A DNA stretch of 63,362 nt, the filler included, from Atractiella rhizophila (taxonomy: Eukaryota): the NCBI GenBank assembly GCA_021432655.1. It is 9 parts of 9 records of this genome, joined end to end, with 100 filler letters (N's around TTAATTAATTAA, not from the genome) between each part and the next. Parts side by side here need not be neighbours in the genome. Positions count along the whole stretch, not along the records: positions 10,467 to 20,821 come from MU272080.1; 8 more parts are not named here. The stretch is one strand, 5' to 3'. Below, one piece after another: positions 16,271 to 20,921 of the stretch (its first letter is position 1; the number at the start of each line of letters is the position of its first letter). The notes under the pieces were generated by a model. That model was not told where the DNA came from and did no database searches. It saw only the letters and a list, made by a program, of their open reading frames with translations. The translations under genes and the position numbers were made by a program.

Positions 16271-17994
16271 TCACATGATGAACAACAAATCTGTGTCGAT
16301 TGGATGACAAGCCGAAAGCTGAGGCTTCTGACTATACTTCTCCTTGAGTTCCTCCCTGATCGTCTTGAGCAATTGCAAGTAGCTCTGCTGGGGATACTTG
16401 GTCAAACTGGCAATGAATGCGTAGCTGTTCCCCTTGTTGAGCTCCGTGAGAAAGAACGAGCTGTGGAACACGAACCTCATAGCTCCAGTAGCCTCTCCTT
16501 GAACCTGGGTATCCGCGCTCGTCTGATCGTCCCTGCAGCCGCTAAACATGATTACCTTTCACACCTGTCAATCACGGCTTTCGTTTAAGGGGGGGGGGAA
16601 ATACGTCAGCAGGAGAAGTATTGTTTTTGATCGTTGCCTCGTGCGCCTTATCTGCCTTCTCTGCCATCATGGTGATCTGTTTCATAGTCTCTAAAGCTCC
16701 TCTGGCGTCGCCAGCAAGATAGCTCTTCAGAGCCTCCATGGCCCCGCCTCCTGTTTGATCAAGGACATGACCGTAGGGTTCTTTGATCTTGCCCTCAGTA
16801 GAATACATGTACGGCAGGTCGAGGGCAGAACCAGAGTGACAGCAGTCGAAGAGCCTGCCAGAAACTTAAGAAGATTGCCCAGTGAACGTACTTAGGACGA
16901 TGCGTACGCAGTAAGACGACAACCAGCAGGAAGTGGTCTAACGAGCAGGTCGTGAATCATGTCGTCGACGATTTGCCCCTCTTCGATGTAGTCAACAGGA
17001 CAAATGGTCTCATCAGCACCTGAGACCAGAATTGTGAGGCTACGGTCTATCACGTTGGAATGAGACGAACCATCATGCTCATCACCGTCCCCTGCGCCAC
17101 CACGCTCGTCGGGAACTTGACCTCCATGCCCAGAATAATGAAATACCAGACTGTCGTTCGGCTGAGCATCTTGTACCAACCACCTAGATGCACGTTAGCC
17201 GAACACTTCGGGGTGTCCACAACGTACTTCATAGCTAGGATAATATTCTTTCCAGTAGGTCGGAAATTTTCTTCCGTCCCTGGTTTATCCAGGAGTACCA
17301 AAATGTCATCGTCTTTAAAATCGTAGCCTTCTATCAAAAATCTAATCCCCCAGAGTTAGACATCGTCTGATGCCCCGAATTGACCAACCTTTTCACGTTT
17401 TCGGCATCATTCCAACATCCGCGCAACTCAGCCTTCGTTCCCACATAGTTAATGCCAACGCAAACTGCCTTCTTCTTGCCACTAGATAAAGGGGCATTAA
17501 ATCTTCTCCTCGAGCAGGGAGTGCGGCGAGCCTACCTGCAGTCGGAGTATGTCCACCAATCGTCCGCCCCTTTCTCCGGAGAAAGATGGAGCGCGCCGAC
17601 GTCGGGAGGTTCCAATGCACCTGGCGGTTTTGGGTCGAGCGGCCCGCCATAGTGGTGCGGGTGAGGAGGAGCGGGAGGAGGCGTGAAGGTGTCCGCGGGG
17701 TACGGGTGCTCATGTTCTGCTTCTTGTTAGAGTGGAGGGCGTTGCAGATCATTACTGACCCTCAACCTCCTCGCTGTCTGACTTCTTCTCAGCTTCATCC
17801 TCCTCCTTTTCTTCCTCCTCTTCTGCCTTCTCGGACTTTTCCTCTTCCTCTTCTTCATTACCATTCTCGTTATCTTCTGCATTCTCTTCCTCGTTTTCCT
17901 CCTCGTCGACAGATTTTTCGTCTTCGTTTTCATCCTCTTCTTCATGGTGTACGTTCTCCTCCTCTGACTCAGGATCGGAATGGTGACGAGGCAT
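16271..17994 (-). CDS. MCA1: Type I metacaspase (peptidase C14), multi-exon
   Basis: [24 protein letters not shown] (catalytic His), [22 protein letters not shown] (catalytic Cys), [26 protein letters not shown]. Confidence 0.95.
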
Positions 17995-18338: not shown

Positions 18339-19842
18339 CTACTCATAGAACGCGCCCCACAGCTCAGTCTGCTGCTGCCTACTTTCCAACCTGATTTCTG
18401 TTCCTGCTTTCAGGAAGATGCTGTGGCCTATTCCTAACTCCATCCTCTCTCCTGTGTCCATCTTGTTTTCAATCGCAGCCGAACCTTTGAGCACGAGGAG
18501 GACGAGCGGGCCGCCGAACTGGAGCAGCTCAGATTCACATCCTGAGAGGGAGGTATGCAGAAGATTGAATTCAGGTATCGGAGGTGAGTAGATAGTCGTG
18601 AATGAGGTCCCGGGGCGGCACGAGCGGTTTAGGCGGAGAGAAGAGGCTGGGACGTGGCGATAAGAGAGCTGGTAAAGAGGTCAGATCAGACGGATTGAGA
18701 CACAGAAGATCAAAACCATGTCAACGAATGTCCGCACTCCGCCTGCTTCTTGGCCTAAACCATGGCACACCATGTTATCGCTGTTTGCCATGCATTCTAC
18801 ACAATCTCCTTCAACATAAGCTGATGCCCAGCAGGTCAGTCCACTTCTACCTCCTGAAGGAACTTGTTACCGTGTATATCATCTGCCAGGATCCACATTC
18901 CTTCTCCTTCCTTCACGTTTACCAAATTCATCATAAACGTTGTCACTAGTAAGCCCACGTCTTTCCCGTAAACGTCCCTACACTTGTTCCAGATAATCAT
19001 GGAGCCTTGAGGCAAAGATTGCTCTCCTTCCTTCTCGATAGCTTCGATGGACTCTGCAATATCATCCGCAGTAAGGGTGATAAGACGTTGGAAGATTGCT
19101 CTGATCCCCGCCTTCTGCTCCTGGTCGCTTGAACTGGGATTGTGCTGGGATCTGAGGAGCGGCAAATCAGGAAGGAGTCGTTTCATTGTATTCGAACGGT
19201 CGAGATTTGCGTAGATCTCTTCAAGTGGACAAAATCCAACGAAGGCCGTGAAGTCCGCCAGTGCTACAAAACATTCTGGCTTCGCGTTGGCGTCTACTTC
19301 CAGTCAGATAAATGTGATGTGAATGAGAGGCGTAGTTCGCACCAACAAACTCTCCTCCGCCGCCGGTGACGCGTTTTGCAATGTCGGAGAGCCACAATTT
19401 TGTACCGAGACTCTTGTCAGGGTGAGCTTGAAGAGGCAACGCTTTGTCGAAAGAGAGCACTTTGAAAAGAAAAGGAAGCCAAAGACCCCCCGCGTATGGT
19501 TGAAGAGCCGCCGCTTTCTCCCCCAAGAATTCGACTGGATTGGAGCTGATAAGTTCGTGCAACGTTTTGGATGAAGAATAGAGTGTGGAGGATCCATTGG
19601 GATGCGTGGAACCGATCCAGATTTCACCGTATGCTTCAATGGCCATGCTCGTCAACATAATGCGTGGTAAGAACACGAAACTGCGTACGTTGCTTAGGAT
19701 CAATGGACACCTCTTCACCCAAAGCTGATTTGGCAAGCTGTGCGGCAAGCGACTTTTCACCTTCCTTCCCGTATGGAAACGGTTGAAGCACTGGCTTCAA
19801 GAGAAAGATTGTGGGAGAGGAGTTCACCGTGGTGCTGGTCAT
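18339..19842 (-). CDS. Type I phosphomannose-isomerase-like cupin protein (divergent)
   Basis: YGEIWIGSTHPNG, LPFLFKVLSFDKALPLQAHPDK, DANAKPE, ADDIHAYVEGDCVECMANSDN, IYSPPIPEF. Ends WGAFYE*. Confidence 0.9.
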
Positions 19843-20921
19843 AATGCGCACAGATTCTCTGAAGCTGCCTTGAATCTGCTCTGACCTGCTCGTGGTTGAA
19901 TATTGAATTCTGGGATCAATCAGATCCTGGGATTCGTTATCAAAAATTATAACCGGTCAAGGTGGTCAACGGCGGGACGACATTTCACGTCATCGTTCGA
20001 GCTGCTTCAGAAACGAGTTGACTTTATGGGTTGGGCTATCAGCAAGTTTGACCGTATTGTCACAGGCGGCCAGCCTCAAAACTCGAGCGATTCTAGTTGA
20101 AACAGTCAGATTCAACTGGCTGAGCTCTAAAAGAGACAGTAAAAAGAACACAGCGCGGTGATATCGACAGACTTGAGCGTTGCCGTATGATAGTAGGCTC
20201 ACCTTTCTTTTGCCCATCTTCACCATACTTTGCCGCATCAAATTTTCAAATCAGCAAAAATGATGCTAACAAACTCGTCGAAGATACCACCTCTCTTCAC
20301 AAAATCAGCTCAGTACTACACAACATCATGGTTGCAATTCTTGTCGAAGTTAGCAAATCGGGACAAGTTGGAATAGAGAGATTCGAAAACGGCGCTTTTA
20401 TTTCATTTCGAAAGGATGCACTGGTGTTCTATATCTGATGATTGGATATTATTTGAGGAATGTAGGTTATAATGAGGACTTGCAATGTTTTTGATCTCCT
20501 TCCTTTCGGCCGAGCTTCTTTTTGTCTCCAGCTCCGGTCGAGCACATAAAAAACGCCGGGGCGCCTTGATCACTTTTTGTCCTTGTCCTTTTCTGAAAGG
20601 CGCGCACGGATGTTGAGTTGTTGAGATGACGGATTATTGGGTCTCAAAGGGCAATTACTGGTGCAAGGCGCGTCACTGTCACTTTCTTACGTGATCTTGG
20701 AGAAATTACCCTGAAAAATCCCACTAGTTCTGCGAACAGTTCATCAGGGACGATGCTCCGTCGAGGCAGCAGCACGAGAGTGGTCTCAAGCATAAAGAGA
20801 GGCAAAGGACTTTCGTGAACANNNNNNNNNNNNNNNNNNNNNNNNNNNNNNNNNNNNNNNNNNNNTTAATTAATTAANNNNNNNNNNNNNNNNNNNNNNN
20901 NNNNNNNNNNNNNNNNNNNNN

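Follow-up and report, generated by a model that had tools for sequence, protein, structure and literature searches.

An LPLQ-type paralogue of type I mannose-6-phosphate isomerase in Atractiella rhizophila and other Dikarya lacks the residues presumed to bind the 6-phosphate

The window, a 63,362-nucleotide stretch of DNA from Atractiella rhizophila, carries on its minus strand (19842..18339) a five-exon gene for a 433-residue protein related to type I mannose-6-phosphate isomerase (PMI). This protein keeps the metal-site and catalytic residues of PMI and lacks those presumed to hold the 6-phosphate of the substrate, and the same combination recurs throughout a clade of fungal paralogues. We regard it as probable (about 0.6) that the gene encodes a zinc-dependent aldose-ketose isomerase, neofunctionalized for a carbohydrate without a 6-phosphate. 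An initial annotation of the gene had arrived at a PMI paralogue acting on a non-phosphorylated sugar; its claims of paralogy, of a lost binding site and of misnaming in databases stood up, but the non-phosphorylated sugar itself is suggested only by the residues.

Residue pattern of the protein and its clade

Exons were aligned by phmmer to the Candida albicans PMI structures 1PMI and 5NW7 (single-exon E values of 1.3e-15 and 1.6e-3), the chain index running one below the published numbering. Both motif regions aligned to these structures without gaps. LPLQAHPD (19439-19416, exon 2) lies over canonical LSIQAHPD, with Pro (19436-19434) in place of Ser109 and with Gln111 (19430-19428) and His113 (19424-19422) kept. 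DANAKPE, encoded at 19343 and 19293-19274, keeps Lys136 (19282-19280) and Glu138 (19276-19274) and has Ala for His135. Over the segment HAYVEGDCVECMANSDNMVCHGLGQE the alignment to 1PMI retains His285 (codon at 18874-18872), Tyr287, Glu294, Asp300 and Asn301, and in exon 4 it replaces Arg304 by Cys (18767-18765), Thr308 by Gly (18755-18753), Pro309 by Gln (18752-18750) and Lys310 by Glu (18749-18747). The four positions assigned to the 6-phosphate (Ser109, Arg304, Thr308, Lys310) therefore read P, C, G and E in this protein. The initial annotation had put the altered motif, SDNMVCHGLGQE, at about 18745-18785; it occupies 18782-18747 and runs gap-free into VRTFVDM and then, beyond intron 4, into LSY. 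That annotation's reading of Ser109, Arg304 and Lys310 as Pro, Cys and Glu, next to a retained metal site (Q111, H113, K136, E138 and H285), was likewise reproduced by the alignment to the Candida structures.

Two papers give Gln111, His113, Glu138 and His285 as the zinc ligands of type I PMI (PMC4865823; PMC10069634), and all four are kept in the Atractiella protein, as are Lys100, Lys136, Glu294 and Tyr287. The catalytic roles of the Lys and Glu residues and the cis-enediol mechanism are summarized in PMC4718643. The consensus YxDxNHKPE, given for eukaryotic PMIs in PMC4865823, is departed from in the window, which reads FVDANAKPE; the change from Tyr to Phe is found in 85% of the paralogue clade, and that from His to Ala in its Pucciniomycotina rows.

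The Atractiella protein deposited in public databases (P0001) was used for a homologue search that returned 1366 proteins among 8000 scored candidates, the best 120 of which were examined. In 47 of these, Ser109, Arg304, Thr308 and Lys310 occurred together; the other 73 lacked Ser109, Arg304 and Lys310, with Thr308 kept in two of the 73, and there were no mixed rows. Because Ser109, Arg304 and Lys310 are present or absent together in all 120 rows, the pattern is more than chance. We take these three residues to be the 6-phosphate binders of type I PMI, for which the support from sequence is invariance only (Arg304 and Lys310, each in 268/268 canonical rows); studies by Cleasby in 1996, Roux in 2011 and Ahmad in 2018 are said to be the sources for this role.

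For a wider comparison, a representative search (5063 proteins at E ≤ 0.001, best 150 used) was supplemented by a profile search for canonical basidiomycete PMIs (best 120 of 7979 matches). Rows outside 370-520 amino acids were excluded from the first tree and rows outside 380-480 amino acids from the added canonical set. This gave 88 paralogue-clade rows to set against 268 canonical rows, the latter representing fungi, animals, plants and bacteria. Arg304 was absent from every paralogue row (0/88; N in 45, A in 32, S in 6, C in 2, and a gap in 3), and Lys310 persisted in a single one (1/88). Ser109, kept in 266/268 canonical rows, occurred in 0/88 paralogue rows, 85 of which have Pro, and Thr308 fell from 266/268 to 4/88. 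The basic equivalents of Lys131 and Lys312 and the Asp313 of the canonical enzymes are also lost in the paralogue clade. Segment 304-316 has a mean net charge of −1.39 in the paralogues vs. +1.74 in the canonical proteins, so that the coordinated loss with charge reversal proposed at the outset for one protein extends to the whole clade. The metal site and catalytic positions are kept in nearly all of the same 88 rows: His113, Lys136 and Lys100 in 88, Gln111, Glu138, His285 and Glu294 in 87, and Glu48 in 84, with Tyr287 present as 80 Tyr and 8 Trp. The Atractiella protein shares the clade pattern of Pro109, Leu110, no Arg304, no Lys310, and kept zinc and catalytic residues, and the reading frame is intact in every listed member.

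These counts bear on three other accounts of the protein. It might still isomerize M6P and fructose-6-phosphate (F6P), as a second isozyme, perhaps of low affinity or differently regulated, in which other residues, or water and the metal, hold the phosphate. The full PMI fold with every catalytic and zinc residue kept would suit such an isozyme, as would a histidine at position 305 that is conserved in the Pucciniomycotina subgroup, and other PMI subfamilies are said to have non-homologous phosphate binders. We nevertheless consider it unlikely, given that Arg304 and Lys310 are invariant in the canonical rows and missing from 87-88 of the 88 paralogue rows, that the 304-316 loop is acidic, and that a search of the 88 rows for newly conserved Lys or Arg in the clade found none present in the Atractiella protein.

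The acidic loop would better suit a cationic or neutral ligand than an anionic one, which raises the second account, that of a charged substrate not phosphorylated at C6 (for instance a sugar acid, an amino sugar, or a sugar with its phosphate at another position), with Glu at the Ser289 and Lys310 positions binding a cationic group. Glu at position 289 is present in nearly all paralogue rows of the homologue alignment. Positions 308-310, however, vary widely within the clade, so that Glu at 310 is no clade feature; we judge this account quite unlikely.

According to the third account the protein is non-catalytic: it would be a pseudo-enzyme, would sense a sugar or a metal, or would be a duplicate that is slowly decaying. 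The departure from YxDxNHKPE in the Pucciniomycotina subgroup would agree with this, as would the faster evolution and the sub-threshold Pfam matches described below. Near-total conservation of four metal ligands and five catalytic residues over 88 rows and two phyla, intact frames in all listed members, and correct splicing of the transcribed gene make it very improbable.

Phylogeny, spread and co-existence with canonical PMI

The phylogeny of LPLQAHP-type fungal paralogues that the initial annotation had called for was built in two ways, and the LPLQ-type rows separated from the housekeeping PMIs in both. In a FastTree phylogeny of 248 rows they formed one clade of 88 (support 97), with one state change sufficing between the two types. 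An IQ-TREE analysis of 65 chosen rows, run under LG+C20 with the trait columns removed, placed 29/29 paralogue rows on one side of a branch with a Shimodaira-Hasegawa approximate likelihood ratio test (SH-aLRT) support of 89, and a core of 22 rows with 95. There the paralogue clade fell within Dikarya PMIs (85), beside canonical Ascomycota PMIs (88), although its exact sister group is unsure because of the long branches in this set. The Atractiella protein grouped with those of other Pucciniomycotina (Cystobasidium, Sporobolomyces and Rhodotorula; support 99), and with LPLQ-type proteins of other phyla rather than with the canonical Pucciniomycotina PMIs (P0135, P0275, P0276 and P0302).

Among the best 120 of the 1366 homologues, about 60 named species have the paralogue. 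Pucciniomycotina are represented by Atractiella, Cystobasidium, Sporobolomyces, Rhodotorula and Rhodosporidiobolus, and the further named members of that list include many Agaricomycetes, Dacrymycetes (Calocera) and Pezizomycetes (Morchella, Geopyxis and Ascodesmis). Among the rows listed, Pucciniales, Tremellomycetes, Ustilaginomycotina and Saccharomycotina were represented by canonical proteins only. Three Pezizomycete paralogues (P0031, P0038 and P0075) nest in the IQ-TREE phylogeny among Agaricales (P0029, P0041 and P0052, from Paramarasmius, Cyathus and Schizophyllum), and the Pucciniomycotina are the sister group of these Pezizomycetes and few Agaricales taken together, with the main Agaricomycete/Dacrymycete subclade lying elsewhere. 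The nesting suggests either that the paralogue was duplicated a second time, long ago, inside its clade or that it passed from one phylum to another. One form, P0189, is 742 amino acids long, with 350 extra residues in which there was no Pfam domain.

At least 25 named species have both the paralogue and a canonical PMI, the latter taken from the best 120 of the 7979 profile matches. The canonical PMI in each of the 25 carries LSIQxHP and SDN..R.G.T.K, and is 0.35-0.40 identical to the paralogue of the same species. Microbotryomycetes, which of the named relatives are closest to the Atractiella query, account for 11 of the 25, and canonical Pucciniomycotina PMIs were matched in Puccinia, Rhodotorula, Sporobolomyces, Microbotryum, Mixia and others within the same best 120. 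This co-existence fits a paralogue distinct from the housekeeping enzyme and is a further point against a second M6P isozyme. Within the 63-kb window, a hidden Markov model (HMM) of canonical PMI searched against all six frames matched only the five exons of the PMI-like gene.

According to PMC9603912, deletion of PMI in Aspergillus leads to dependence on added mannose, for which reason a fungus without a working PMI would be unusual. The same paper reports that the PMI of A. flavus shares only 35% identity with a "Fusarium oxysporum PMI." Canonical proteins and paralogues stand at this level of identity in our comparison, and the Fusarium sequence may itself be a paralogue.

Fold, database naming and predicted function

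P0001 matches the catalytic-domain family PF20511 (PMI_typeI_cat) with 86.3 bits (cut-off 22; range for canonical proteins, 145-151); exon 2 alone reaches 56.3 bits (E 4.9e-15). Exon 5 matches PF01238 at E 4.3e-4 and 20.8 bits, just below the cut-off of 21. The helical-domain model PF20512 had no match in P0001, the C-terminal Pfam model stayed under its cut-off, and no Pfam family other than those of PMI was found in P0001 at E ≤ 0.01. Searched alone, exon 3 gave a single match, the Atractiella protein, which we attribute to a very divergent helical domain. The ESM Atlas model of the sequence (predicted template modelling score, pTM, 0.90; predicted local distance difference test, pLDDT, 0.88) aligned with PMI clusters at template modelling (TM) scores of 0.82-0.89 over residues about 5-433, which, as a comparison of predicted models on both sides, supports the whole three-domain architecture of PMI.

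With the NCBIfam equivalog TIGR00218 ("manA"), P0001 scores 196.9 bits, the cut-off being 116.2 and the score of canonical fungal PMIs 262. Because this score lies above the cut-off, pipelines name the paralogue PMI, as the initial annotation had anticipated, and several clade members among the best 120 of the 1366 homologues bear one of the deposited names "Mannose-6-phosphate isomerase" and "class I mannose-6-phosphate isomerase." The score is what a second M6P isozyme would be expected to show, but it is no evidence of activity. A whole clade, with members in morels, red yeasts, wood-decay fungi and other groups, is accordingly labelled as an essential enzyme, probably wrongly. Genome-scale metabolic models may in consequence include a second PMI that is false, and where PMI is discussed as an antifungal target, a redundancy may be assumed that does not exist. 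A literature search on PMI paralogues in fungi, in which subscription journals were mostly not covered, found no description of an LPLQ-type clade; that the clade is unpublished is not proven, and while the observation of the clade is solid, what we say of its function is a prediction.

We propose that the Atractiella gene, which is transcribed, is functional and belongs to an old clade of type I PMI paralogues spread over the Dikarya. The encoded protein keeps the fold of PMI, all four zinc ligands and the residues that act as acid and base in the proton shift between C1 and C2 (Lys of the NxKPE motif, Glu294, Tyr287, Lys100 and Glu48), and it has lost what is presumed to be a positively charged clamp for the 6-phosphate of M6P and F6P (S109P, R304C, T308G and K310E). 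It would carry out zinc-dependent aldose-ketose isomerization through the same cis-enediol chemistry, our best guess for its substrate being a neutral sugar with a mannose-like configuration at C2 and C3; GDP-mannose synthesis would then depend on a separate canonical PMI. A working catalyst is suggested because the metal site and acid/base residues are conserved over two phyla, and a substrate without a 6-phosphate because the basic clamp is lost completely, clade-wide and with no replacement. What we infer from comparing sequences is thus that the protein is a catalyst, that it no longer acts on M6P, and what kind of substrate it has. More tentatively, and with some doubt, a duplicated PMI that lost its clamp may have given rise to the LPLQxHP clade as a eukaryotic family of zinc enzymes that isomerize mannose-type sugars in free, unphosphorylated form, be it D-mannose/D-fructose, D-lyxose/D-xylulose, ribose/ribulose or a 6-deoxy sugar. 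If so, Dikarya fungi would have a kinase-independent entry or exit for mannose-type sugars, and an enzyme active on free sugars would fill a gap in fungal sugar metabolism and add a eukaryotic source of isomerases for rare sugars. For enzyme evolution, the clade would be a clean natural case of new function gained by loss of a phosphate site with the catalytic metal centre kept.

Several points weigh against an isomerase for a substrate without a 6-phosphate. The phosphate-binding role of Ser109, Arg304 and Lys310 is presumed, and short bacterial type I PMIs bind phosphate from other positions in the chain, so that the paralogue may do so by other means. One candidate residue is His305, which all Pucciniomycotina rows of the homologue alignment share. 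Loop 308-310 is variable within the paralogue clade, which fits a lost constraint but offers nothing that would point to a new ligand. The paralogue also evolves faster, with a mean pairwise identity of 0.51 vs. 0.64 for canonical PMI over 300 species pairs, and was the more conserved of the two in 14 of these pairs. No canonical PMI of Atractiella was among the best 120 of the 7979 profile matches, which is a limit of that list and not an absence. Finally, the neighbours in the window (encoding LIM, MBOAT, acidic and MRP-S25 proteins) have no link to sugar metabolism and provide no metabolic context.

The Atractiella protein shares with C. albicans PMI (1PMI, 5NW7) and yeast PMI40 the three-domain fold, PF20511, the zinc ligands, and Lys136, Glu294, Tyr287 and Lys100. 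It differs from them in the replacement of Ser109, Arg304, Thr308, Pro309 and Lys310, in FVDANAKPE, in having no PF20512 match and in belonging to a separate clade; canonical fungal PMIs are about 33-36% identical to it. Free-sugar side activity has reportedly been seen in the enzymes of B. subtilis and Thermus thermophilus and in the R142N mutant of the latter, as the titles of the reports state, and an Arg-to-Asn mutant is said, in the title of a 2011 report by Yeom et al., to have produced more L-ribose. Asn is also the commonest residue at the Arg304 position of the clade (45/88), which would be a likeness to R142N if R142 corresponds to Arg304.

PMI chemistry can isomerize non-phosphorylated aldoses and ketoses, though poorly: for the type I M6P isomerase (M6PI) of Bacillus amyloliquefaciens, Table 1 of PMC4718643 lists 1-31 U/mg on free sugars vs. 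81,000 U/mg on M6P. The bacterial type I M6PIs are, however, short enzymes whose main substrate is still M6P, whereas the loss of the phosphate site in the fungal proteins is natural and clade-wide. Rice OsPMI3 resembles the fungal paralogues in being a eukaryotic PMI homologue kept beside active PMIs; according to PMC4865823 it lacks the PMI consensus and the zinc ligands and has no detectable PMI activity, unlike the fungal clade, which keeps those ligands. The bacterial cupin-type D-lyxose/D-mannose isomerases, described as metal-dependent and acting on free mannose or lyxose in PMC6746899, are possible functional analogues; no sequence relation to them was seen, Pfam giving only PMI families in P0001.

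Gene structure, transcripts and surroundings

The gene model was obtained by joining stop-to-stop open reading frames (ORFs) and comprises five exons and four GT..AG introns on the minus strand, from an ATG at 19842-19840 to a stop at 18341-18339; the coding region as a whole is supported by the model and by spliced contigs. Exon 1 (19689..19842) runs from the N-terminus to SIDPKQ and ends in phase 1. After intron 1 (19634..19688, 55 nt), exon 2 (19343..19633) encodes the catalytic-domain core with FLFKVL (the Lys100 equivalent) and LPLQAHPD. Intron 2 (19294..19342, 49 nt) is followed by exon 3 (18871..19293), the divergent helical domain from (D)ANAKPE to DDIH, which scores 85.8 bits with the canonical-PMI HMM. 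Intron 3 (18821..18870, 50 nt) splits the Ala codon of HAY, which therefore spans it. Exon 4 (18717..18820) is AYVEGDCVECMANSDNMVCHGLGQEAGGVRTFVDM and aligns to 1PMI residues 285-322, and beyond intron 4 (18669..18716, 48 nt) exon 5 (18339..18668) encodes the C-terminal jelly-roll domain and the stop codon.

Contigs from the public run X10 join the exons exactly at 18668/18717, at 19293/19343 (in two contigs) and at 19633/19689, where the 55 nt they skip read CT..AC on the plus strand; at intron 4 they skip 48 nt. The intron 3 joint in the same run is 18815/18871 with five letters between, and the contigs differ from the window there at two synonymous places. Because these joints match the model introns, the gene is transcribed and spliced as modelled. 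The initial annotation had allowed that splicing might restore an RAGLTPK-like motif; the piece of the motif exon at 18717-18815 is identical in the spliced contigs (0 differences), so splicing creates no such motif. Run X2 covers only a small part of the gene. Two soil metatranscriptome contigs, X1 and X4, match the window at 19383-19597 and 19693-19892 with 0-1 differences, a coverage too small to speak for habitat or expression. The acceptor of intron 2 is a NAGNAG-type tandem (19296/19293) with both sites in frame; use of 19296, 3 nt upstream, would add one Val and give 434 amino acids, and 19293 is the site used by the spliced contigs and by P0001.

P0001, deposited as "RmlC-like cupin [Atractiella rhizophila]," has 433 amino acids and the same exon structure and is 98% identical to the window product. 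Seven of the 433 residues differ (L79I, Q240K, I248S, R319Q, C341S, A389V and L410V), leaving the active-site motifs untouched, and there are about 15 base differences between the window and P0001 or run X10. Because of the residue differences, the window comes from another strain or haplotype of Atractiella (Pucciniomycotina) than the deposited protein. A sequencing or assembly artefact, or a pseudogene, was considered and rejected, as the frame is intact, the same motif occurs in the independent allele P0001 and the pattern is clade-wide.

The ORFs around the PMI-like gene in the window include a very acidic, Glu/Asp-rich one directly downstream (17752-17994, minus strand), which has no Pfam family and whose ATG is about 345 bp from the PMI-like stop. 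The others match mitochondrial ribosomal protein S25 (MRP-S25, PF13741; 20878-22252, plus strand), an MBOAT acyltransferase (PF03062; 11993-12478, minus strand) and a LIM-domain protein (PF00412; 10501-11490, minus strand).

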